This document shows positions 39,244 through 50,035 of a stretch of 64,000 nucleotides of DNA, piece after piece. Source of the DNA: an uncultured Chloroflexia bacterium (GTDB lineage Bacteria > Chloroflexota > Limnocylindria > Limnocylindrales > CSP1-4). The notes beneath the pieces were generated by a model. That model was given only the letters and a program-made list of their open reading frames with translations. It was not told the DNA's origin and searched no databases. The stretch's first letter is position 1. The number at the start of each line of letters is the position of its first letter. Where the stretch lies: positions 192,001 through 256,000 of the forward strand of contig CAVVYR010000006.1 of NCBI GenBank assembly GCA_963752475.1, in the 5' to 3' direction. Position numbers and translations under genes: made by a program.

Positions 39244-40482
39244 ATGAACGGGACGCCCACTGACGATCTTGCTCCGCGCCGGGACGAGATCGGCTTCCTT
39301 GCCGACGTCGCTCACCTGGTCGCATCTGCACGCACGTGGGAGGACCTCATGGGCACCGTCATCGACCGTGCCCGCGCCGCCGCCCGTGCGGATGTCTGCT
39401 CGCTCTATCTCACCGATCGCGACGGCAGTGGCCTGACGCTCGCGGCCACCAACGGGCTCGATCAGCACGCGGTTGGCGTGGCCCGCCTTGGGATGGGGCA
39501 GGGCATCACCGGCTTGGCGGCCCAGGCCCAGATCACCATCGTCAGCCCGGACGTCCATGATGACGAACGCTTCGCCTGGATCCGCGGCCTCGACGAGGAG
39601 CGCCTGACCTCGTTCTGCTCGGTGCCGCTGGTGTGGGAGGAGCAGGTGGTCGGGGTGCTCAACGTCCAGACCGCCGAGCATCGCGACTTCCGACCATCCG
39701 ACATCGGGTTCCTCGAGGCGCTCGCGGGTCTGCTCGCCGGCCTCGTCGAGAAGAGCCGGCTCCATGCCGAGGCCGAAGCCCAGCTCGAACAGCTCCGCGC
39801 CATCGACGAAGCGAGAGCCAACCTCGTGGCCGTCGTGACCCACGCGCTGCGGACACCGCTGGCCGTCGTGCGCGCCTACGTGGAGTTGCTCGGCGGCGCC
39901 GCCGCGGGCACCGGCGACGAGCAGGTCGTGAGCTGGGAGAGAGAGGCGCTGACACAGGTCGATCGTCTCGATGAGACCGTCGACAGCATCCTCGACAGCC
40001 TCCGTGTCATGCCCGATGCGCCGACCGAGCTGGTGCCCATCGACCTCGCAGCCGAGGTCAGCGCCGTCGTGAATGAACTGAAGCCGATGCTGCGAGGTCG
40101 CGAACTTCGCGTCTCCGTCCGTGACGAGCCGCTCGTGGCCCTGGCTTCGCCCGAGGAGCTCCACCGGCTCCTGGGCTACCTGCTCGAGAACGCTTCGAAG
40201 TACGCACCCGTTGGTGGTGCCATCGATATCTACGGCTGGCGCGACGGCGATGGTGCGTACGTCGCTGTCACCGACGACGGCCCGGGCATCCCCAAAGAGT
40301 GGCGCGAACGCATCTTCGAACCCTTCGTGCGCCTCGACGACTCTCCCCGCGGCTCCGGCATCGGCCTCTTCGCGGCACGCCGTCTGGGTCGGGCCATGGA
40401 AGGGGAGCTGACCGTCGAGCCGCGGAAGCCGTTCGGCTCGCAGTTCGTGCTGCGCCTCAAGTTCGTCGGTTCCGCCCGCTAG
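39244..40482 (+). CDS. GAF-domain sensor histidine kinase (soluble)
   Basis: GAF (CSLYL..LAATNGL..GQGITG..VPL..VGVLNVQ), H-box THALRTPL, N-box LENASKY, DDGPGI, GSGIGL. Confidence 0.9.
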   Translation: MNGTPTDDLAPRRDEIGFLADVAHLVASARTWEDLMGTVIDRARAAARADVCSLYLTDRDGSGLTLAATNGLDQHAVGVARLGMGQGITGLAAQAQITIVSPDVHDDERFAWIRGLDEERLTSFCSVPLVWEEQVVGVLNVQTAEHRDFRPSDIGFLEALAGLLAGLVEKSRLHAEAEAQLEQLRAIDEARANLVAVVTHALRTPLAVVRAYVELLGGAAAGTGDEQVVSWEREALTQVDRLDETVDSILDSLRVMPDAPTELVPIDLAAEVSAVVNELKPMLRGRELRVSVRDEPLVALASPEELHRLLGYLLENASKYAPVGGAIDIYGWRDGDGAYVAVTDDGPGIPKEWRERIFEPFVRLDDSPRGSGIGLFAARRLGRAMEGELTVEPRKPFGSQFVLRLKFVGSAR

Positions 40483-40557
40483 GCGAGCAACGGCGGCCGG
40501 CGGCACTCGCCGCCCGGGTCGCCCGCGACCGGCAACGCTCGGCCACCCGAGCACAGC

Positions 40558-40593
40558 CGACGGCCCGCGAGTTGGGAGCCTCGCGGGCCGTCG
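40558..40593. terminator. 14-bp perfect hairpin between convergent HK and amt genes
   Basis: CGACGGCCCGCGAG-N8-CTCGCGGGCCGTCG; no U-tract. Confidence 0.5.
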
Positions 40594-40685
40594 TACCGGA
40601 TCCGTGTCGGTCCACCGAGGCGGACTCGACGCGTGTGGTCTCGAGAGGAGCGGTCTCGATCCGACCGACACTCCCTGGTGTCGAT

Positions 40686-41978
40686 CTAGGCGGGCTCTGC
40701 CTCCGCCGCGGCGGCTGGAGCCTGTGGGGCGGCGGTCGCGGCGCTGGTGCCGTCGGCGGTGCCGGCCCACGGGACGTAGGCGGTCTCGCCGTGGACGGCC
40801 ACGTCCAGACCAGCTTCCTCTTCTGCCTGTGGAACGCGCAGGCCGATCACGATATCGATGACCTTGATGATGATGAAGGTCCCGATGGCCGCAAAGGCGA
40901 TGGTGAAGACGGTGGCCACGACCTGGATCACCAGCTGCTCGGCGTTGCCGTCGATCAGGCCGGAGACGCCACCGATGGCGGCGACGGCGAAGATGCCCGT
41001 GCCGACCGCGCCCCACATGCCGCCGACGCCGTGGACGGCGAAGACGTCGAGGGAGTCGTCGATCGAGAGGCGCTCGCGGAGGAGCGTGACGCCGAAGCAG
41101 GCCGCACCGGCGACGAGACCGAGGACCAGCGCCCCGCCGACCTCGACGAAGCCGGCCGCCGGAGTGATGGCGACCAGGCCGGCCACGGCACCAGCGGCCG
41201 CGCCCACGACGCTGACCTTGCGGTTGGCCAGATACGAGGCGCCGACCCAGGTCAGGGTTCCGGCAGCAGCGGAGACGGTGGTGACCATGAGGGCCTGAGC
41301 AGCCAGGCCGTTGGCGCCGAGGGCGGAGCCGGCGTTGAAGCCGAACCAGCCGAACCAGAGCAGGCCGGCGCCGAGGACGGTCATGGGCACGTCGTGCGGT
41401 TCGACATGGTGGCCGCGCATACGGCGACCCATGACCAGCGCGACGACGAGAGCGGAGACGCCGGAGGCGATATGGACGACGGTGCCGCCGGCGAAGTCAA
41501 GGGCACCGAGCTCGGCCAGGATGCCGCCACCCCAGACCATGTGGGCCAGCGGGGAGTAGATGAGCAGCGACCAGGCGATGGTGAAGACGACGAAGGCCGC
41601 GAAGCGCTTGCGCTCGGCGAAGGCGCCGCTGATGAGTGCCGGCGTGATGGCCGCGAACATCATCTGGAACGTGGCGAAGAGGACGAATGGGATGGTGCTG
41701 CCCTCGGCGGGCTCCATGCCCACGCCGCTGAAGAAGATGTACTGCAGCGGATCGCCGACGATGCCGGCTCCACCCAGCGAATCACCGAAGGCGAGGCTGA
41801 AGCCGACGACGACCCAGACCACCGTCACGATGGCGAGGCCGAAGAAGCTGTGCATGATGGTCGAAAGGACGTTGTTGGCGCGCACGAGTCCGCCGTAGAA
41901 CAACGCCAGGCCGGGCAGCATCAGCATCACCAATGCTGTCGACATCAGGATCCAAGCGGTATCGCCAGTGTCGATCAT
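40686..41978 (-). CDS. amt: Ammonium transporter
   Basis: DTGDTAW, PGLALFYGG, FQMMFA, DFAGGTVVH, LLWFGWFGFNAGS, DDSLDVFAVHG. Confidence 0.96.
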   Translation of the reverse strand: MIDTGDTAWILMSTALVMLMLPGLALFYGGLVRANNVLSTIMHSFFGLAIVTVVWVVVGFSLAFGDSLGGAGIVGDPLQYIFFSGVGMEPAEGSTIPFVLFATFQMMFAAITPALISGAFAERKRFAAFVVFTIAWSLLIYSPLAHMVWGGGILAELGALDFAGGTVVHIASGVSALVVALVMGRRMRGHHVEPHDVPMTVLGAGLLWFGWFGFNAGSALGANGLAAQALMVTTVSAAAGTLTWVGASYLANRKVSVVGAAAGAVAGLVAITPAAGFVEVGGALVLGLVAGAACFGVTLLRERLSIDDSLDVFAVHGVGGMWGAVGTGIFAVAAIGGVSGLIDGNAEQLVIQVVATVFTIAFAAIGTFIIIKVIDIVIGLRVPQAEEEAGLDVAVHGETAYVPWAGTADGTSAATAAPQAPAAAAEAEPA

Positions 41979-42181
41979 GAGTTCCCTCCTGCGATGGGTT
42001 TGCCCCTCTCTCCGCAGCGGACATCCGGGGTCCACCGCTCCATGTCGAGAACCGTAGGAAGGCTGGGCAGCGAAGTCAGCGACAGCGAGGTCGGGATGTA
42101 GTGGCTCGGGGGTGCATGTTCGGTTGCGGCCCGGTGTCAGCCACGCCGACCTGCGCGGCCCAAGGTTGCGGCCGAGGACGC

Positions 42182-42907
42182 TTAGGCGTCGAGGCGGTAA
42201 CCCACGCCTCGGACGGCCACGGGCACCGGTGCGCCGGCGTTGACCAGCTTCTCGCGCAGTCGGGCGAGGTGTGGCTTGAGCCAGAGCGGATCGGGGTCGG
42301 GCACGTCCGGCCAGCCCGCGGCCAGCAGTTCCTCGTGCGGCACGACCTCACCCAGTCGCTCGACCATCGCTTGCAGCAAGCGGAACTCGGTCACCGTGGT
42401 GGGCAGGGGCGTGCCCTGCCAGCGGATCTCGTGGCGGCGTCGATCGAGCTCATAGCCCGACGGGTCACCCTTGCCGCGGTCGCCGCGGTTGCCGGCCGCC
42501 CGGCGCGAGACGGCCCGGACGCGTGCCAGGAGCTCGTCGGCACGGAAGGGCTTGCGCACGTAGTCGTCGGCGCCAAGGTCGAGCAGCTCCACCGTGGCGC
42601 CCTGATCACGCTCTCCCGAGACCACGATGATGGGCGTGTCGCTCACGTCACGGATGCGGCGGCAGACGCTTGCACCGTCCATGCCCGGCATGGCCAGGTC
42701 GAGCAACACGAGGTCGGGCTCGTCGTCGCCGAAGCGGCGCAGCGCCTCCTCGCCGTCGTAGGCCGCGATGATCCGGTGACCGGCCTGACCCAGCAGCGCG
42801 CCGAGCGCACCGACCATGGCCGGCTCGTCATCGACCACGAGGATCTTGAGCGGCTCCGCCGCCGGTGTCTCGTGTGCGTTCCCCGGCTCGTCTCCGAGCG
42901 TCGTCAT
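42182..42907 (-). CDS. OmpR/PhoB-family response regulator
   Basis: ILVVDDE, VLLDLAMPGMDG, GADDYVRKPF, wHTH ending VRGVGYR. Confidence 0.92.
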   Translation of the reverse strand: MTTLGDEPGNAHETPAAEPLKILVVDDEPAMVGALGALLGQAGHRIIAAYDGEEALRRFGDDEPDLVLLDLAMPGMDGASVCRRIRDVSDTPIIVVSGERDQGATVELLDLGADDYVRKPFRADELLARVRAVSRRAAGNRGDRGKGDPSGYELDRRRHEIRWQGTPLPTTVTEFRLLQAMVERLGEVVPHEELLAAGWPDVPDPDPLWLKPHLARLREKLVNAGAPVPVAVRGVGYRLDA

Positions 42908-43425
42908 CGTGTGGATCCCTTCATGTGCACGGCCGAGCGCAAGGCCTCGAACCGCTCGAGCCACGCCTCCAGTCGCTCCTCGTCCGCGAAGAGGACGAGG
43001 ATGGTGTTGTCGCCTGCGAGCGTGCCTTCCTGTTCGTCGAAGCTCGATTCGTCGATGGCCTGACCGATGGCGTTGGCTACCCCCGCCTCGGTCCCGAGCA
43101 GGAGCGTGAGCCCGGAACGGCCGATGTGGATCGGATAGTCCGCGAGCACGCGGCGCAGCCGCTCGTCGCTATCAGCCGACGGGATGGACGCCAGATCGGC
43201 GGGCCAAGCGTAGATGTGCTGCCCATCGTAAGCCACCTTCACGAGGCCCAGCTCCGTGATGTCCCGGCTCACGGTCGCCTGGGTCACATCGAACCCTCGG
43301 TCAGCGAGCAGGTCGACCAGCTGGTGTTGGCTGGAGACGGACTGCGCGGAGACGATCTCGCGCACGGTGTGCTGGCGCTCGCGCTTGAGGGCACGCGAAG
43401 ACATCGGTCGGGTGGTGGAGTCCAT
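42904..43425 (-). CDS. argR: Arginine repressor
   Basis: SQ..LV..L...GFDVTQATVSRDITELGLVKV; GTLAGDNTILV. Confidence 0.93.
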   Translation of the reverse strand: MDSTTRPMSSRALKRERQHTVREIVSAQSVSSQHQLVDLLADRGFDVTQATVSRDITELGLVKVAYDGQHIYAWPADLASIPSADSDERLRRVLADYPIHIGRSGLTLLLGTEAGVANAIGQAIDESSFDEQEGTLAGDNTILVLFADEERLEAWLERFEALRSAVHMKGSTR

Positions 43426-43558
43426 CGCTGGTCAGTATACAGCTGCACCGTATCCATATGCAGTCCTGAGCGTGCGTCGCATGAGTATCGCCGAGCAACA
43501 TGCATATATGAGTGCAGGGATTGTACTTTCGACTCGGAGCCTGCTACAGTCCGCCGCG

Positions 43559-43621
43559 ATGAAGCCTCACGGTACTCGCATGGCGATGCCCAAGGCCCCG
43601 CCGGGATGGGCGAGGGCCTGA
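43559..43621 (+). CDS. Putative 20-aa leader peptide MKPHGTRMAMPKAPPGWARA (Met codons 8 and 10)
   Basis: ATG 8 nt after a -10-like TACAGT (43545-43550), with TTGTAC 18 bp upstream; followed by a hairpin; architecture parallels the lys leader. Confidence 0.5.
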   Translation: MKPHGTRMAMPKAPPGWARA

Positions 43622-43665
43622 GGGAGCGCGCCCGAAACCAGCGCTCACCATCAGGACGGATCCCC

Positions 43666-43700
43666 GGGGCCGCGACCAACGAAGCGAAGGTCGCGGCCTT
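43666..43700 (+). terminator. Attenuator/terminator-like hairpin in the thrC-like leader
   Basis: GGGGCCGCGACC / GGTCGCGGCCTT 12-bp stem with a weak T tail; left arm overlaps the alternative pairing with 43594-43600. Confidence 0.55.
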
Positions 43701-43763
43701 CGTGATTCCTGAGCACGCCCCGGCTCCGGTGAGAGCCGGTCATGATCGAGAGGATCCATCCCC

Positions 43764-45116
43764 ATGACGCAGATCGCCATCCGCCCCGCTACCGAGACCA
43801 CCGACACCGCACCGGCCCCCATCGGGGGCAGCACGTCGACCACGACCGACCAGAGCTTCACTCCCGGCTACACCGGTCTGCGCTGTCGCGCCTGCGGTAC
43901 CGAGGCCGCTGACGGCCCGGTCTTCGTGTGCAGCCGATGCTTCGGTCCGCTCGAGCCGCAGTACGACCTCGACGGCATCCGACGGCGCCTCACCCGCGAG
44001 ATCATCGACGCTCGCGATCCCGATATCTGGCGCTGGGCGGAGCTGCTGCCGATCACCGAGCTCCCGACCACCGGCCTCCACGTGGGCCAGTCGCCGCTGA
44101 CCGATGCGCCCCGCCTCGCCGCGCGCATCGGCCTCGACAGGCTCTGGGTCAAGGACGACTCGCGCAACCCCTCGCTCTCGTTCAAGGACCGCCCGGTCTC
44201 GATCGCCGCGGCCCGGGCCAAGGCCTGGGGCTACCACACGCTCGCCTGTGCCTCGACGGGCAACCTCTCGGCCGCCGTGGCCGCGGCGGCTGCTGCTCAC
44301 GGACTGCGCTCGGTCGTCTTCATCCCCGCGGACCTGGAGCCGGCCAAGATCGCGCAGGCCCGCGCGCTCGGCGCCACCGTCGTTCGTGTCGACGGGCCCT
44401 ATGACGACGTCAACCGCCTGTGCCTGGAGCTGACCGACGAGCTCGAAGGATGGGCCGTCCTCAACGTCAACCTGCGCCCGTTCTACGCCGAGGGTTCCAA
44501 GACCATCGCCTTCGAGATCGCTCGGCAACTGGGCTGGCGAGCGCCTGATGCGCTGGTGGCGCCACTGGCCAGCGGGTCCATGTACACCAAGCTCGACCGC
44601 GGCTTCGCCGAGCTGACCGAGACGGGCCTGCTGCACGAGGCAGCGGTGCGCTTCTTCGGTGGCCAGGCCACCGGATGCGGCCCCATCGCCAGCGCCTTCG
44701 AGGCCGGTCAGGACGTCGTGCGCCCGGTCGAGAAGCCGGACACCATCGTGCGCTCGCTGGCCATCGGCTCCCCGGCTGACGGTGGCTACGCCATCAAGCA
44801 GGCTCGTGCGAGCGGCGCGGCCATCCTTGGCGTCGAAGACGAGGCCACCATCGACAGCATCCGCCTGTTGGCCGAGACCGAGGGCATCCTCACCGAGACC
44901 GCCGGCGGCGTGACCCTGGCCGCGCTGCGCCGAGCCATCGACGAGGGCCACATCCAGCGCCAAGAGGAGGCCGTGCTGGTCATCACCGGCAACGGCATCA
45001 AGACGCTCGATGTCCTTGCGAACGACGACGCCAACACGTTGCCCGAGCCCATCGCACCCAGCTTCGACGCCTTCGAGGAGTGGTGGCGGAACACGGCCGA
45101 GGAAGCGGCCGCTTGA
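43764..45116 (+). CDS. thrC: Threonine synthase-like PLP enzyme (possibly O-phosphohomoserine sulfhydrylase type)
   Basis: N-terminal Zn ribbon CRACG..CSRCFGPL, NPSLSFKDR, CASTGN, EGSKT, ETAGGVT, ITGNGIK. Confidence 0.8.
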   Translation: MTQIAIRPATETTDTAPAPIGGSTSTTTDQSFTPGYTGLRCRACGTEAADGPVFVCSRCFGPLEPQYDLDGIRRRLTREIIDARDPDIWRWAELLPITELPTTGLHVGQSPLTDAPRLAARIGLDRLWVKDDSRNPSLSFKDRPVSIAAARAKAWGYHTLACASTGNLSAAVAAAAAAHGLRSVVFIPADLEPAKIAQARALGATVVRVDGPYDDVNRLCLELTDELEGWAVLNVNLRPFYAEGSKTIAFEIARQLGWRAPDALVAPLASGSMYTKLDRGFAELTETGLLHEAAVRFFGGQATGCGPIASAFEAGQDVVRPVEKPDTIVRSLAIGSPADGGYAIKQARASGAAILGVEDEATIDSIRLLAETEGILTETAGGVTLAALRRAIDEGHIQRQEEAVLVITGNGIKTLDVLANDDANTLPEPIAPSFDAFEEWWRNTAEEAAA

Positions 45117-45198
45117 CTCCCGCCGGGGGCGGCGGCGCATCGGCGTCTCCCGAGCTGACTTGACGTCGCCGCCCGACTCCGCGACACTACGCCGCGGA

Positions 45199-45261
45199 AT
45201 GACTCATCTGTATCTTCTCAAGCCGAAGCCCACGCGGCCCTGCCTGGAGGCAGTGGCCTAG
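45199..45261 (+). CDS. Putative 20-aa leader peptide MTHLYLLKPKPTRPCLEAVA (Lys codons 8 and 10)
   Basis: Follows TTGACG-17bp-GACACT (45160-45188); precedes a terminator and the dap/lysA operon. Confidence 0.6.
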   Translation: MTHLYLLKPKPTRPCLEAVA

Positions 45262-45309
45262 ACGGCTTCGCTCGGGAAACCGACTCGGGGCCGCTAGGCC
45301 GGCTCCGAG

Positions 45310-45350
45310 GGCCGCAGACACCGACCAGGGTGACTGCGGTCTTTTTGTTT
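45310..45350 (+). terminator. Intrinsic terminator (attenuator) upstream of dapB
   Basis: GGCCGCAG-A-CACC / GGTG-A-CTGCGGTC stem followed by TTTTTGTTT. Confidence 0.8.
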
Positions 45351-45417
45351 GGCTCGGAGCCAGCTCAGCCGTCTCGTCGGATCGATCACCCAGCCACGAC
45401 GAGGAACCACACCTACG

Positions 45418-46170
45418 ATGCGAGCACTCATCACCGGCAGCGGCAACATGGGCCGTGCCATCGCCAGCGGCCTCGAGGCGCGCGGTGACGACGTGGCGGC
45501 CACGGCCGGCCGCGAGACCGGCTATCCCGCGGCCGCGGAGATCGGCGCCGTCGATGTCGCCTTCGAGTTCAGCCATGACTCCACCCTGCTCGAGCACATC
45601 GACCTGGGGCTCGCCACGGGCTGTCGTGCCTTCGTCGTGGGCACCACCGGCTGGAGTGCCGCTGACGAGATCGGCCAGGCCTTCGCGGCTCGCCTCAGCG
45701 AGAACGGTGCCCGTGCCGTGGTGGCTCCGACGTATAGCCTCGCCGCGGTCCTCTTCGGCGACATCAGCGAGTACGCTGCCCGCCTCTTCGGCGGCTTCGG
45801 CGACTATGACCCCTATCTCTTCGAGCAGCATCGCGCGGCCAAGGCCGACCGACCCTCTGGCACCGCCCTCGCGGTGGCCAACCGCCTGGTCCCACACCTC
45901 AAGGCGAAGCGCGAGGCGCGCCTGGCCACCGACGCGGGCGCGCCCGATCCCGAGGTGTTGGAGATCGTGGCCCTGCGAGCCGGCAGCCACCCGGGCATGC
46001 ACACCGTCGGGTTCGACGGCCCGGGTGAATCGTTGCAGGTCAAGGTCGAAGCCCGAGACCGCTCGGCCTACGTGGCCGGGGCCATCCTCAGCGCCGACTT
46101 CCTCATCGAGCAGCCAGACCGCACCGGCATCACCGCCTTCACCGACCTGGTCCACGAACGGACCGCCTGA
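45418..46170 (+). CDS. dapB: 4-hydroxy-tetrahydrodipicolinate reductase
   Basis: GSGNMG, VGTTGW, EQH..KADRPSGTA, LRAG..PGMH; adjacent to dapA. Confidence 0.88.
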   Translation: MRALITGSGNMGRAIASGLEARGDDVAATAGRETGYPAAAEIGAVDVAFEFSHDSTLLEHIDLGLATGCRAFVVGTTGWSAADEIGQAFAARLSENGARAVVAPTYSLAAVLFGDISEYAARLFGGFGDYDPYLFEQHRAAKADRPSGTALAVANRLVPHLKAKREARLATDAGAPDPEVLEIVALRAGSHPGMHTVGFDGPGESLQVKVEARDRSAYVAGAILSADFLIEQPDRTGITAFTDLVHERTA

Positions 46171-46205
46171 GCAAACGAAACGACATCACCGAAAGGGACG
46201 ATCCC

Positions 46206-47126
46206 ATGAGCAACCCCATCTTCAGCGGTGCCATCACCGCCCTCGTCACACCCATGAACGCCGACGGCTCGCTCGACGAGGAGACCCTCGTGGCCATGGT
46301 CGAGCGCCAGATCGACGCCGGCATCAACGGCCTCGTGCCGGTGGGCACGACCGGTGAGTCGCCGACGCTCTCGGCCGAGGAGGACCAGCGCGTCATCGAG
46401 CTGACCATCGAGACCGTGCGGCGCCGTGGCGTGGCCGAGACCACGCCCGTCATCGCCGGCACCGGCTCCAACGTGACCCAGCACGCCATCGAGTACACCG
46501 AAGCCGCCATGCGCCTCGGTGCCGATGCCGCACTGGTGGTCTCGCCCTACTACAACAAGCCCGACCAACGGATGCTCGAGGCCCACTACCGCACCGTGGC
46601 TGACGTGGGCCTGCCGGTGGTGGTCTACAACGTCCCCGGCCGCACTGGTGGCAACGTCGCTCCCGCCACCCTCATGCGCCTCGCCGAGCACGAGAACATC
46701 GTGGCTGTGAAGGAAGCCTCGGGCAACATGGAGCAGATCATGACCATCGTGCGTGATCGGCCCGACGGCTTCGCGGTCCTTTCCGGTGACGACAGCTGGA
46801 CCCTGCCGATCATGGGCGTGGGCGGCGATGGCGTCATCTCGGTGGCCTCCAACGAGGTGCCCCAGGTGATGGTCGAGCTCTGTGCCGCCGCGGCTCGTGG
46901 TGACATGCAGACCGCCTGGGATATCCACTACCGCTATCTGGAACTGATGCGGGTGAACTTCATCACCACCAGCCCGGCGCCGGTCAAGGCGGCCATGGCC
47001 GAGATGGGCCTCATCACCGACGCCCTGCGCATGCCCATGATGACCCTCGACGAGGCCAACCGGGCCCGCGTGCGCGAGGTCCTGGCCGACCTCGATCTGC
47101 TGCCAACGGCCGAGGCTGCTGCATGA
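46206..47126 (+). CDS. dapA: 4-hydroxy-tetrahydrodipicolinate synthase
   Basis: ALVTP, GTTGESPTL, PYYNKP, YNVPGRTG, VKEASG, SGDD. Confidence 0.95.
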   Translation: MSNPIFSGAITALVTPMNADGSLDEETLVAMVERQIDAGINGLVPVGTTGESPTLSAEEDQRVIELTIETVRRRGVAETTPVIAGTGSNVTQHAIEYTEAAMRLGADAALVVSPYYNKPDQRMLEAHYRTVADVGLPVVVYNVPGRTGGNVAPATLMRLAEHENIVAVKEASGNMEQIMTIVRDRPDGFAVLSGDDSWTLPIMGVGGDGVISVASNEVPQVMVELCAAAARGDMQTAWDIHYRYLELMRVNFITTSPAPVKAAMAEMGLITDALRMPMMTLDEANRARVREVLADLDLLPTAEAAA

Positions 47127-48092
47127 TCGCCGACGCCACGTCCGAGCCGAACGATCCGCGGGGGCCGGCAGCCACCGACTCCCACGTGGCTGCCGCCTCG
47201 TCTGCCCTGGCCGCGCGCATCGCCGCCCTTGACGCGGCCTGGGCCGCAAGCCGCCGGCTCCCCGAGTGAGGACCTCATCGCCGAGGTCCGCGTGGTCGTG
47301 GAGGAGCTGGTGGCGGCGCTCGAGGCCGGCGAGGTCCGTGCGGCCACGCCTGACGCCGGCATCGATGGTGGCTGGCGCGTGGACCCCTGGGTCAAGACCG
47401 GCATCCTCATGGGCTTCCGCCTGCCCGGCATGACCGACCTGCGTGATGGACCGATCCTGGCCGCGCGCGACAAGGCCGCCTACGGGCTGCTCGATCTGCT
47501 CGATAGCGACGCCGCGAACGCGGCCTCGGCCGCCGGGGCTCCGTGGCGCGTGGTGCCGGGCGGCTCAGCCGTCCGCAGCGGCGTGCACCTGGAGCCCGGC
47601 GTGACCATCATGCCGCCGTCCTACGCCAACATCGGTGCCTGGGTCGGCCGCGGCACGATGATCGACTCCCACGTGCTCGTGGGCTCGTGCGCCCAGATCG
47701 GGGAGGACGTGCACCTCTCGGCTGCGGTCCAGATCGGCGGTGTGCTCGAACCCGCCGGCGCACGTCCGGTCATCGTCGAGGATGGTGCCTTCGTCGGCGG
47801 TCAGGCGGGCCTCTACGAGGGCGTCACCATCAGTCGTGGTGCCGTCATCGGCGCGGGCACGATCGTCACCGGCCAGAGCCGGGTCGTCGACCTCGTCCAC
47901 GGCCGCGAGCTGCGCGGGACGGCTGAAGCGCCGGTGGTGATCCCGCCCGACGCGGTCGTCGTTCCGGGCACGCGCCCGGCCGGCTCCGATCTCGCACGTG
48001 AGCAGGGCCTGTCGGTCTCGGTGCCGCTCATCGTCAAGTACCGAGATGCCGGCACGAACGCACGGGTGGCTCTGGAGGACGCGCTGCGGTGA
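47123..48092 (+). CDS. dapD: Tetrahydrodipicolinate N-succinyltransferase; apparent +1 frameshift near 47245-47250
   Basis: WVKTGILMGFR, RVVPGG, MPPSYANIGA, GSCAQIG, GGVLEP; ATG overlapping the dapA stop runs in a different frame, total length 3n+1. Confidence 0.85.
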
Positions 48093-49357
48093 ACGCCGTT
48101 GCAGCGTCGATCGCGGTCGGGGCGACCGTCGCCGGCCTCGACCCCGCGGCGCTGACCGCGGAGTGGGGGAGCCCGCTCTTCGTCTACGACGCCGAGGTGC
48201 TGCGCTCACGGGCGGCCGCCCTGCAGGCTGCCCTGCCCCAGACGGCGGACGTGGCGTTCGCGTGCAAGGCCAACGGCTCGCCCGTGGTGCTGCGTACGCT
48301 GGCCCAGGCCGGGCTGGGCGTCGACGTCGCCTCCGGCGGTGAGCTGCGTGCAGCGCTGCGGGCCGGCTTCGATCCTGCCCACATCGTCTTCACGGGCCCG
48401 GGCAAGACCGATGCCGAGCTGGCCGAAGCACTCGATGCCGGTGTTGGAGCGCTGACGCTCGAGTCGCTCGAGGAGCTGGACGTCGTGGTCGGCTTCGCTG
48501 GGATCGCGAAGGCGGGCCAGGGCTTGATGCTGCGGCTGGCCACCGAAGGGGAGGCCGAAGGGCTGCCCATCATCAGCGCACCCGGCAACGTCAAGTTCGG
48601 GCTCACCGACGCCGAGGCCGAATCGGCCGTCGCCTCCATGCGCGAGGCTGGAGCGCTGGCGCCCGAGGGCCCCTTCGTGCTGCGTGGCTTCCACGCCTTC
48701 GGCGCCTCCAACGTTCGCGATGCCGCCGTGCTCGTCGAGGCTGCTGCCGACCTCGCCGCTCGCGCGGAGCCCATCGCCGCGCGTCATGGGATCGAGCTCG
48801 AGCTGCTCGACATGGGTGGCGGCCTCGGTATCCCCTATGCCCACGATGAGACGCCGCTCGACATCGCGGGACTCGGTGCGGGGCTGGCCGCGGAGATGCG
48901 CTCGTGGGCCGACCGCCCGGCCTTGCGTGAAGCCCGGTTGCTACTGGAGCCCGGCCGGTGGCTGGCCGGACCTGCCGGTGCCTACCTCTGCCGCGTCACG
49001 CGTACCAAGGAGCGTGGCGGTCGGGTCGTGGCCATCAGCGATGGCGGCATCCACCACCTGCTACGCCCGCGCCTGGTGGGCCAGGACCACCGCGTCGTGC
49101 CCGTCGGTGAGGCAGCCGCTCGTGAGGCGGACGTCGAGGTCGATCTCGTCGGGCCGCTCTGCACCGGTATCGACATCCTGGCCTCGGCCGTGCCCTCGCC
49201 GCGCCCCGCAGCAGGGGACCACTATGCCGTCCTCGATGCCGGCGCCTACGGCTACAGCGAGTCGATGCCGCTCTTCCTGGCGCACCCGACCCCGGCCGAG
49301 ATCGTCATCAGCGACGGCGCCGCCACTGTCTCCCGCGACCGCATCGAACCGGAGTGA
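48089..49357 (+). CDS. lysA: Diaminopimelate decarboxylase (group IV PLP decarboxylase)
   Basis: SPLFVYD, FACKAN, DVASGGEL, TGPGK, KFG, DMGGG, EPGR, GPLC, GAYG; operon context. Confidence 0.8.
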   Translation: MNAVAASIAVGATVAGLDPAALTAEWGSPLFVYDAEVLRSRAAALQAALPQTADVAFACKANGSPVVLRTLAQAGLGVDVASGGELRAALRAGFDPAHIVFTGPGKTDAELAEALDAGVGALTLESLEELDVVVGFAGIAKAGQGLMLRLATEGEAEGLPIISAPGNVKFGLTDAEAESAVASMREAGALAPEGPFVLRGFHAFGASNVRDAAVLVEAAADLAARAEPIAARHGIELELLDMGGGLGIPYAHDETPLDIAGLGAGLAAEMRSWADRPALREARLLLEPGRWLAGPAGAYLCRVTRTKERGGRVVAISDGGIHHLLRPRLVGQDHRVVPVGEAAAREADVEVDLVGPLCTGIDILASAVPSPRPAAGDHYAVLDAGAYGYSESMPLFLAHPTPAEIVISDGAATVSRDRIEPE

Positions 49358-49404
49358 TGCGCGTACGCATGAGGACATGCGCTCACGCATGATACGCTGC
49401 GGCC

Positions 49405-49650
49405 ATGCCGAAGACCATCCAGATCCGAGACGTTGACGATGCCGTCTATGCCGGGCTGGCCAAGCGTGCGGCCGAGGCGGGTGTGACGGTGCCCGAGCTG
49501 CTGCGTCGCGAAGCAGCCCGCATCGCTTCGCGGCCGACATTGGATGAGTGGCTCGAGCGTACGAGGCGCCGCCCGTCGGGGATCACGCCCGAAGAGGTCG
49601 TGGCGGCGCTGGATGAGTCACGTGGGCCATGGCCCGATGCTGGTCGTTGA
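49405..49650 (+). CDS. Antitoxin (RHH, FitA/VapB-like)
   Basis: MPKTIQIRDVDDAVYAGLAKRAAEAG RHH pattern; overlaps the PIN gene. Confidence 0.8.
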   Translation: MPKTIQIRDVDDAVYAGLAKRAAEAGVTVPELLRREAARIASRPTLDEWLERTRRRPSGITPEEVVAALDESRGPWPDAGR

Positions 49651-50035
49651 CGCGTCGTGTCTGTACGAGGTCGTGGCTGACGGCACCAAGGGCGAGGTGG
49701 CTCGAGCGCGGATGCGGTCGGACCCGGAACTCGCAGCGCCGCACCTCGTGGATGCCGAGGTCCTCGGAGTGATCCGGCGCGACCTGATGCTGGGCCGGAT
49801 CGACCCGACCACTGCCCACCAGGCTGTCGAGGATCTGCGCGACTGGCCCGGGGAGCGCTTCGATCATCGCGTATTGATGACGCGTGCATGGGGGTTGCGA
49901 GATCGCATTCGCACGTGGGACGCGTTCTATGTCGCGCTGGCCGAGGCGTTGGACGCAACGCTCCTGACGTTCGACCAGAGGCTAGCGCGTGCCGTGGACT
50001 CGCACTGCCACGTGGAGGTGCCTGGCGACTACTGA
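49637..50035 (+). CDS. vapC: VapC-family PIN-domain toxin
   Basis: MLVVDAS, APHLVDAEV, WDAFYVALAE, LLTFDQRL. Confidence 0.88.
   Translation: MLVVDASCLYEVVADGTKGEVARARMRSDPELAAPHLVDAEVLGVIRRDLMLGRIDPTTAHQAVEDLRDWPGERFDHRVLMTRAWGLRDRIRTWDAFYVALAEALDATLLTFDQRLARAVDSHCHVEVPGDY

Follow-up and report, generated by a model that had tools for sequence, protein, structure and literature searches.

What controls lysine biosynthesis in bacteria that lack the familiar lysine-responsive elements? Genes for lysine biosynthesis are typically under the control of a lysine riboswitch, a T-box or LysR, and the diaminopimelate (DAP) pathway is a standard example of riboswitch or protein control. Here, we address this question for the dapB-dapA-dapD-lysA operon in a 64-kb stretch of DNA (hereafter, the window) from an uncultured Chloroflexia bacterium (Limnocylindria; Limnocylindrales; CSP1-4; GCA_963752475.1, contig CAVVYR010000006.1). 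An initial annotation had read the region immediately upstream of dapB as a candidate attenuator in which a short upstream open reading frame (uORF) with lysine codons governs a terminator. This element lies in the 301-nt gap between a threonine synthase-like (thrC-like) gene on its 5' side and dapB on its 3' side, and we conclude from comparative sequence analysis that it is likely a transcription attenuator of the ribosome-mediated, leader-peptide type, with charged lysyl-tRNA as its signal and dapB-dapA-dapD-lysA as its target.

Results

A lysine-codon leader travels with dapB in Limnocylindria

The promoter-like hexamers, the uORF, both AAG codons, the 8-nt complement and the terminator described in the initial annotation are all present in the sequence at the positions listed in Table 1. 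Among 60 relatives searched at the DNA level, 33 of 36 same-genus genomes have the leader, as opposed to none of 24 genomes of a sister family with small genomes; the block kept in the most distant DNA matches covers approximately 45217-45361. We then used a covariance model made from 29 same-genus sequences, leaving out one locus (L017) that is cut by a contig end; the E-values of this model are rough, and some of the alignments used below were fitted to it. The model matches the window's genome, which is 88.8% complete, once. In a sample of 151 genomes of the order, 69 were matched (family, 67 of 108 genomes; 21 of 27 genera), while in a phylum-wide sample of 151 genomes matches were found in the same class only, i.e. 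in 3/3 genomes of the family and 2/10 of a second family, and the families of other Chloroflexota classes in that sample gave no match to the model. The two loci of the second family read K-S-K and precede dapB-dapA. Finally, an exact pattern scan of public records with one genome per species recovered at least 119 stretches, and among the matches listed, nearly all titles name metagenome-assembled genomes of Chloroflexota, Limnocylindria or Limnocylindrales.

The gene downstream of the leader is nearly always the same. dapB follows in all same-genus loci but L017 (29 of 30), and dapB together with dapA follows in all 26 other-genus loci. Similarly, dapB lies downstream in 107 of the 119 matches listed, and 9 of the other 12 have less than 400 nt of sequence past the motif. 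By contrast, thrC is upstream in just 19 of the 30 same-genus loci and in 1 of the 26 other-genus loci (L041, within the flank). Thus, the element travels with dapB.

These counts bear on an alternative, namely that the hairpin and its U-tract are a plain thrC terminator and that the hexamers, the reading frame and the complement are coincidental. Such a terminator would be in place in the window, where no other terminator was found from the thrC stop (45116) to the hairpin, including 45117-45198, and it would have thrC as its neighbour in the 19 same-genus loci mentioned above. However, the element is kept without an upstream thrC in 11/30 same-genus and 25/26 other-genus loci, it always stands before dapB, and its conserved block starts at the uORF, 83 nt past the thrC stop; we therefore regard this alternative as extremely improbable. 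A transcript reading through from thrC would meet the hairpin with an untranslated, non-leaderless uORF, and the terminator of the attenuator may therefore also end thrC read-through in a dual role.

A few matches fall outside this distribution. Four records titled Methylomirabilota, Binatia, Verrucomicrobiia and Saccharimonadales (L085, L132, L137 and L140) are short contigs of 2.5-21.6 kb; all four have the leader core with dapB downstream, and three have the uORF while L132 is without an in-frame ATG. Binning errors seem a more likely source of these labels than true occurrence in other phyla. Three further matches (L096 from an alphaproteobacterial isolate, L176 and L178) have neither dapB nor a lysine cluster, L096 is also without a uORF, and these three look like chance matches. 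The sole match in the sister family (L077 in genome G085) looks like a plain terminator after the end of a gene, has no uORF and was treated as a false positive.

The uORF has coding character and keeps its lysine codons

In the same genus, the uORF ATG is aligned in all 30 loci and a frame of 20-21 codons with K-x-K, the conservation of which the initial annotation had singled out for checking, is kept in 29. Two indels in same-genus uORFs (L024 and L027) are whole codons, and codons 2-7 vary freely (MTHLHVL, MQYQYVL, MTRSLVL and others). In the 119 matches listed, 179 ATGs located 9-60 nt before the AAG that is fixed in the pattern are in frame with it as opposed to 17 and 30 in the other two frames; 112 matches have an in-frame ATG. 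Moreover, a stop codon within 48 nt is present in frame 0 in 116 of these 119 matches and in the other two frames in 1 and 2. Across genera, TGA, TAG and TAA exchange at one stop position, and other genera have a longer leader peptide, e.g. MNRRIFSTGSKKKLWRPCREARALGL. In total, by the comparative criteria of frame, in-frame ATGs and stop interchange, the uORF has coding character.

In the 5' direction, the frame of the uORF stays open as far back as an ATG at 45010, which falls within thrC but in a different frame. How far the frame is open before the conserved ATG differs among relatives, from a few codons to hundreds, and, therefore, the conserved unit starts at ATG 45199. Towards its 3' end, in the half that reads RPCLEA..., the uORF is conserved in nucleotides, third positions included, and the hairpin loop there accepts non-conservative changes of Leu to Arg or Pro; thus, this half is constrained as RNA and not as peptide.

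Two of the 20 codons in the window's uORF are lysine codons. Within the genus, the columns of the two AAG codons show no variation, in contrast to the codon between them; the 30 loci read KPK (21), KRK (3), KKK (3), KSK (1), KKSK (1) and a frameshift (1), so that the middle residue is Pro, Arg, Lys or Ser, and elsewhere it is also Ala, Gln or Thr. The pattern used for the public records fixed only a single AAG; over the five codons that end there, nonetheless, two or more lysine codons are present in 116 of the 119 matches listed and three or more in 78, and the commonest five-codon forms are ESKKK, EAKKK, VLKPK, ALKAK and KPKSK. The antiterminator arm begins 8 nt past the first base of the last lysine codon, a distance that is fixed by the pattern.

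Upstream of the uORF, 10 nt separate the end of the -10-like hexamer from the ATG. This hexamer agrees with TATAAT at just three of six positions, and the position of the promoter-like element is kept in the 30 same-genus loci. In most of 108 loci, -35/-10-like pairs were found 6-10 nt before the ATG by a scan that takes the best of many candidates. Simple consensus scans for promoters and terminators in 44000-50000 gave no call for either, because their thresholds exclude this -10 hexamer and the interrupted stem of the terminator. No Shine-Dalgarno sequence is visible before the uORF. Given that the -10 element ends 10 nt before the ATG, the mRNA is predicted to be leaderless or nearly so.

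The antiterminator is conserved and excludes the terminator

The whole leader folds at -80.5 kcal/mol (z-score, -4.84). The terminator hairpin, which adjoins UUUUUGUUU and has a stem interrupted by an A/A mismatch, folds at -23.4 kcal/mol, and none of 200 shuffled sequences was as good. The antiterminator helix (a1) consists of a core, 45234-45241 paired with 45308-45315, in which GCGGCCCT and AGGGCCGC are exact complements, and an extension, 45245-45249 paired with 45303-45307. The GAAA-capped hairpin placed between the two arms by the initial annotation (a2) is present as well, and it surpassed its shuffled controls (Table 1). It is mutually exclusive with helix h1, the base of hairpin h2 and hairpin h4; its 5' arm holds the uORF stop codon, and it is part of the minimum-energy fold of the nascent transcript. 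Hairpin h4 competes with a2 and ties up the 3' extension of the antiterminator. In these folding models, the antiterminator and the terminator cannot coexist, and the regulatory codons are closely followed by the 5' arm of the antiterminator.

Among 28 distinct same-genus rows, pairing is kept in 100% for the a1 core, 97.9% for the a1 extension, 100% for the terminator, 93.3% for h2 and 88.7% for a2. Most helix pairs are invariant and thus uninformative on covariation. At position 45237, a G to A change covaries with both alternative partners: the pair in h2 is GC in 19 rows, GU in 6 and AU in 3, and the pair in a1 is GC in 24, AU in 3 and GU in 1. Across genera, pairing of the a1 core is kept in 98.7%, in an alignment made by a model without a1; the terminator has five pairs with compensatory changes in an alignment that was fitted to the model. 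That each segment has two alternative partners explains the high nucleotide conservation.

A single 8-nt complement is not significant on its own, as 184 of 2000 shuffled 8-mers find a full partner in the window if G-U pairs are allowed. In one GC-rich sequence, the complement is thus not far above chance, and the case rests on conservation. Of the related loci, 113 have enough sequence, and in 106 of these a full partner is present for the arm and overlaps the 5' arm of a terminator, as compared to 9.1% of trials with shuffled arms over the 113 loci. The partnered hairpins have a median of -25 kcal/mol, and at least 5 U in the 9 nt past the stem are present in 92/106 loci. With exact complementarity, i.e. 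without G-U pairs, only 46/113 loci have a partner; G-U pairs were allowed because most genera have GGGGCCGC, with a U-G closing pair.

Downstream of the terminator, helix a3 surrounds the terminator hairpin, so that the U-tract falls within an internal loop; only read-through RNA can form this helix. A possible hairpin at the dapB Shine-Dalgarno sequence follows (Table 1), and in the per-sequence folds this region is paired as CCUCG:CGAGG in some loci and as GUCCC:GGGAC in others. From the folds, this hairpin may add a translational layer upstream of dapB. It could also be imagined that translational or RNA-stability control of dapB by this hairpin and a3 is the main output and that there is no premature termination. 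The use of different sequences to pair the Shine-Dalgarno region in different loci speaks for such an output, as do the 96.8% pairing of a3, which forms on read-through RNA only, and the weak U-tracts of some relatives (4 U or fewer in 9 nt in 14/106 loci). Against this, the Shine-Dalgarno hairpin in the window is no better than shuffled sequences (z-score, -0.61), RNAalifold gave 0 consensus pairs for the stretch from the terminator to dapB (28 sequences, poor alignment), and conservation in the leader is highest at the terminator stem and U-tract. Altogether, these observations make translational control as the main output highly improbable, and favour transcription attenuation.

Sister leaders carry other sensor codons on the same scaffold

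The covariance model also gave lower-scoring matches (23.8-55.5 bits) at second sites in other genera. We examined 20 such places: L080 is that genome's own dapB leader (K-R-K), L077 is the plain terminator described above, and the remaining 18 (L061-L076, L078 and L079), all in other genera of the same family, are sister copies with the layout of the dapB leader, i.e. a GCGGCCCC arm, a GGGGCCGC partner, a terminator and a U-tract. The sensor codons 8 nt before the arm are ATG-TGY-ATG in 15 of the 18, e.g. MNHTCLSWDMCMRWRPRRSEDGV; two examples of such Met-Cys-Met copies are L064:201-366 and L065:3580-3743 (minus strand). The three others read ATG-CAG-ATG (L062), C-V-C-M-C (L074) and M-C-P-C (L073). 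A full partner of the arm is present in 17/18 sisters, with a closing pair that is C-G in 16 and G-C in 1, as opposed to U-A or U-G in the lysine class.

The genes downstream differ as well. Ten downstream open reading frames (ORFs) were tested, and seven encode Cys/Met pyridoxal phosphate enzymes of family PF01053 (metY/metB type) while one is without a family. The two Cys-rich copies precede a sulfite reductase gene (NIR_SIR; L074:3570-3735, minus strand, MSHQPRACVCMCRRPRRPEDGV) and a rhodanese gene (L073:3634-3779, minus strand, MRHASMCPCRSAALRPPDGA). No Met/Cys-type copy was found in the window's genome, either with the pattern at up to two mismatches or with the covariance model, and five other same-genus genomes in the order sample gave no second covariance-model match. 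A change of sensor codons with the downstream pathway is what a ribosome-read attenuator predicts, whereas a lysine riboswitch predicts none. This codon swap on a shared scaffold is, at the level of sequence, the strongest single argument that the leader is a ribosome-read attenuator.

Could the leader instead be a switch that binds a metabolite or a protein, e.g. a new lysine riboswitch, with a terminator/antiterminator platform and an incidental short ORF? Lysine genes are usually riboswitch-controlled, the leader has several stable hairpins, and nucleotide conservation is very high in the loops and at the third codon positions of the uORF's 3' half, all of which such a switch would account for. 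As to known families, a scan of the 64-kb window at Rfam gathering scores gave 0 matches, with no lysine riboswitch and no T-box, and a scan of 45000-45500 at E-values up to 10 gave three chance-level matches (E 3.2-8.3), none of them to the lysine riboswitch family RF00168 or a T-box. Moreover, searching the whole genome for RF00168 gave 0 matches, with a control that was positive in four named genomes. The two classes of element that the initial annotation had named as the ones to exclude are thus without a match at this locus. A binding switch has no need for a fixed distance between promoter and start codon, a kept frame, stop interchange or whole-codon indels, all of which are found here; the poorly conserved 5' part keeps its Lys codons nonetheless; Met/Cys codons are found on this scaffold before metY-type genes; and the nucleotide conservation is explained by the two alternative partners of each segment. 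A binding switch is therefore a very unlikely explanation, and every comparative test run supports the core of the initial annotation, namely a uORF with Lys codons coupled to a terminator/antiterminator switch that is not a riboswitch.

Stalling at lysine codons is predicted to favour the antiterminator

From the folding models, we infer the following order of events for the lysine attenuator. With a promoter 10 nt upstream, the mRNA would begin at or just before the uORF AUG, with no Shine-Dalgarno sequence. If the RNA is untranslated or the ribosome is gone, h1 and h2 would hide the GCGGCCCU arm, h4 and then the terminator would form, and transcription would stop at 45342-45350. If lysine is scarce, the ribosome would stall with an AAG (45220 or 45226) in the A site and cover the 5' strand of h1. 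With h1 blocked, the strand containing the stop codon would be free to form a2, which would prevent h4 and undermine the base of h2; GCGGCCCU and UGGAG would then pair with CUCCG and AGGGCCGC, capturing the 5' arm of the terminator and allowing read-through into dapB. If lysine is plentiful, the ribosome would reach the stop codon in the 5' arm of a2, block a2 and leave, and the terminator would form; after release of the ribosome, the RNA would return to the free, terminating fold.

Folding with ribosome-covered positions masked gave these states in the window's leader. In free nascent RNA, h1 and h2 fold first, followed by h4 and then the terminator. With the first Lys codon in the A site, h1 is impossible, a2 forms from a 3' end at 45292, and a1 has the minimum energy once the 3' end reaches 45316, up to the point at which the 3' arm of the terminator emerges. 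With the antiterminator or the terminator forced on the complete leader, the energies are -70.3 and -77.6 kcal/mol, respectively, for free RNA, -68.0 and -71.1 kcal/mol with the first Lys codon in the A site, and -46.8 and -58.0 kcal/mol with the stop codon in the A site. In 98 orthologues, the median difference (antiterminator minus terminator) is +8.7 kcal/mol for free RNA, +2.9 for the first Lys codon, +2.0 for the last Lys codon and +4.1 for the stop codon, and the mask at the first Lys codon shifts the balance toward the antiterminator relative to free RNA in 86/98 loci.

The initial annotation had proposed that stalling at Lys frees the arm and allows read-through while full translation masks the arm and allows termination. 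The shift in 86/98 loci agrees with the first part in so far as a stalled ribosome is compared with untranslated RNA; relative to a ribosome at the stop codon, the shift is seen in just 53/98 loci. The second part needs correction, because a ribosome at the stop codon would cover approximately 45244-45269, i.e. the extension of a1 together with the 5' arm of a2, and not 45234-45241.

Several observations weigh against the attenuator as proposed. At equilibrium, the terminator is more stable in every ribosome state and, therefore, the outcome must be kinetic. The models do not separate a ribosome stalled at Lys from a ribosome at the stop codon (53/98 loci). Only two Lys codons are present in the window's uORF, and a stall at the second of these, with a mask of +13/+14 nt, covers the first bases of the antiterminator arm, making the first Lys codon the better-placed sensor. 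The uORF of one of the 30 same-genus loci (L028) is frameshifted by one extra base. The model depends on helix h1, but pairing in h1 is kept in only 82.1% in the genus, without compensatory change, and the helix is poorly kept in the more distant same-genus loci; for the first two of these reasons, and because the first AAG lies outside h1, pairing in h1 also fails to explain the invariance of the AAG codons. The antiterminator is near-invariant, so that covariation rests on one pair in the lysine class and on the difference between the classes. Finally, the genomes are related and the counts overstate independence.

Some of these points raise the alternative that the terminator is indeed under the control of the uORF, but as a general readout of translation capacity or ribosome coupling rather than of lysine, the lysines being there for the peptide or as a slow basic +X+ motif. 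Having two or three Lys codons only, and modelling that separates only the translated-and-stalled state from the untranslated state, would suit a general sensor of this kind. On the other hand, the residue between the two lysines is free (P, R, K, S, A, Q or T), and the sensor codons follow the pathway, with Lys before dapB, Met-Cys-Met before PF01053 genes and Cys-rich motifs before sulfite reductase and rhodanese genes. We consider a general translation sensor unlikely and retain lysine-specific attenuation.

Genomic setting of the proposed attenuator

The genes of the operon were identified with Pfam and NCBIfam (Table 1); for dapB, the DapB_C and DapB_N matches were obtained with the in-frame ORF 45349-46170. 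Upstream of thrC, three long ORFs on the plus strand in 40299-43767 (40299-42101, 42101-43063 and 42865-43767) are without a Pfam family, and the one NCBIfam match among them is weak (UrtD, E 9e-4); their frames are possibly miscalled in GC-rich DNA, or the genes are uncharacterised. Fifteen RNA-labelled runs contain small parts of the stretch, and the four of these that were placed on it gave only Logan contigs of relatives. These contigs, of 154 nt (45215-45358, where it ends), 235 nt (45215-45447) and 426 nt (45178-45379), show no transcript ends and may stem from DNA carry-over; hence, they were not used as evidence.

Table 1. Positions of genes, leader elements and RNA helices in the window
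Feature	Position	Strand	Description
thrC-like gene	43764-45116	+	TIGR00260, 247 bits; stop ends at 45116
Promoter-like element	45160-45188	+	-35 TTGACG 45160-45165, 17-nt spacer, -10 GACACT 45183-45188
Leader ORF (uORF)	45199-45261	+	ATG 45199, 20 codons, TAG 45259-45261; peptide MTHLYLLKPKPTRPCLEAVA
Sensor codons AAG-CCG-AAG (Lys-Pro-Lys)	45220-45228	+	AAG at 45220 and 45226
Helix h1	45224-45230 with 45264-45270	+	Encloses h2; contains second Lys codon; in minimum-energy folds
Antiterminator 5' arm	45234-45249	+	GCGGCCCT 45234-45241, GCC bulge, TGGAG 45245-45249
Hairpin h2	45236-45244 with 45249-45258	+	Sequesters antiterminator 5' arm; in minimum-energy folds
Hairpin a2, GAAA-capped	45255-45300	+	-34.2 kcal/mol, z-score -6.0, better than all 200 shuffles
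Hairpin h4	45284-45309 (45284-45293 with 45300-45309)	+	In minimum-energy fold; 83.5% paired
Helix a3	45301-45308 with 45354-45361	+	96.8% paired in genus; in minimum-energy fold of read-through transcript
Antiterminator 3' arm	45303-45315	+	CTCCG 45303-45307 and AGGGCCGC 45308-45315; overlaps terminator 5' arm
Intrinsic terminator	45310-45350	+	Hairpin 45310-45341, then TTTTTGTTT 45342-45350 (U-tract)
Possible dapB Shine-Dalgarno-sequestering hairpin	45372-45404 (45372-45379 with 45397-45404)	+	-11.1 kcal/mol, z-score -0.61; weak
dapB	45418-46170	+	DapB_C E 5.6e-21; DapB_N 23.9 bits, under its 25.6-bit cut-off
dapA	46206-47126	+	Pfam/NCBIfam
dapD	47229-48092	+	Pfam/NCBIfam
lysA	48089-49357	+	Pfam/NCBIfam
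Proposed regulated operon dapB-dapA-dapD-lysA	45418-49357	+	Pfam and NCBIfam

Discussion

The classical leader-peptide attenuators are those of trpL, hisL, pheL, leuL, thrL and ilvL in E. coli and Salmonella; in these systems, the terminator is more stable than the antiterminator and kinetics decide the outcome. The dapB leader resembles them in having a short ORF with codons for the end product, a terminator and an antiterminator that exclude each other, an intrinsic terminator before the first gene, and a terminator that is the more stable structure. It differs from them in that the sensor is for lysine, in that the uORF has no Shine-Dalgarno sequence and starts approximately 10 nt past the -10 element, in its longer chain of helices (h1/h2, a2, h4, a1, terminator and a3) and in its Chloroflexota host.

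Leaderless sensors have been described elsewhere. The mycobacterial polycysteine attenuators are reported to be leaderless short ORFs that form the first cistron of their operon (bioRxiv 10.1101/834739). The dapB leader is like them in being apparently leaderless and in having codons that match the pathway, and the Cys-rich sister copies L073 and L074 look analogous; it is unlike them in that the codons are for Lys and not Cys and in that an explicit terminator/antiterminator pair is conserved. Similarly, the trpL attenuator of Sinorhizobium meliloti is leaderless, and a leader peptide has been suggested to be encoded by SEP5, a small ORF that lies in the 5' untranslated region of an aspartate dehydrogenase gene and contains six Thr codons and three Lys codons (PMC10117765). 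The dapB leader ORF is apparently leaderless as is trpL, and as in SEP5, Lys codons precede an aspartate-family gene (PMC10117765). SEP5 is dominated by Thr codons, stands before a different gene and has no sequence or structural relation to the dapB leader.

In the main texts of the articles searched, no attenuator with a lysine leader peptide was found, either for the DAP pathway or for Chloroflexota. Thus, judged from sequence, the mechanism proposed here would be a textbook one, i.e. a known kind of control that is unreported for this pathway and this phylum in the literature searched; more unusual is the re-use of one scaffold for sensing Lys, Met and Cys. If conserved and read by the ribosome as proposed, the lysine sensor would extend the list of amino acids with known sensing by attenuation to lysine, and would provide insight into the regulation of amino-acid synthesis in an abundant uncultured class of soil and freshwater Chloroflexota without genetics. 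Moreover, the more than 100 natural variants (K-x-K, KKK, KxKxK and the Met/Cys versions) form a natural mutagenesis series and suggest a design rule, with sensor codons 8 nt before the antiterminator arm, that may be usable for amino-acid-specific synthetic switches.

Two systems share the function or the logic of the dapB leader. The lysine riboswitch, or L-box (RF00168), also controls lysine biosynthesis genes via a terminator/antiterminator platform; unlike the L-box, for which neither the window nor the genome gave a match, the sensor here is an ORF that is coding by comparison and not an aptamer. The lysine cluster of Thermus thermophilus, which belongs to the alpha-aminoadipate (AAA) pathway, is reportedly controlled by leader-peptide attenuation (J Biol Chem, about 2005). 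If so, that case is a precedent for lysine-sensing attenuators; both would have leader peptides with lysine codons, and they would differ in pathway (AAA versus DAP), phylum and scaffold.

Finally, the sister leaders invite a comparison with the T-box, which reads uncharged tRNA directly and in which a few specifier nucleotides at a fixed place set the amino acid. We think it somewhat probable that one ancestral Limnocylindria scaffold is programmable, with two to five sensor codons located 8 nt before the arm that have been swapped to direct the switch to different pathways: AAG-x-AAG or AAG-AAG-AAG before dapB-dapA(-dapD-lysA), AUG-UGY-AUG before metY-type genes, and Cys-rich codons before sulfite reductase and rhodanese genes. 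Like the T-box, such a scaffold would be re-targeted among amino acids at a fixed position; unlike the T-box, to which the leader has no match, the codons would be read by the ribosome. If so, the scaffold would be a ribosome-read counterpart of T-box specifier swapping that could be re-coded at will.

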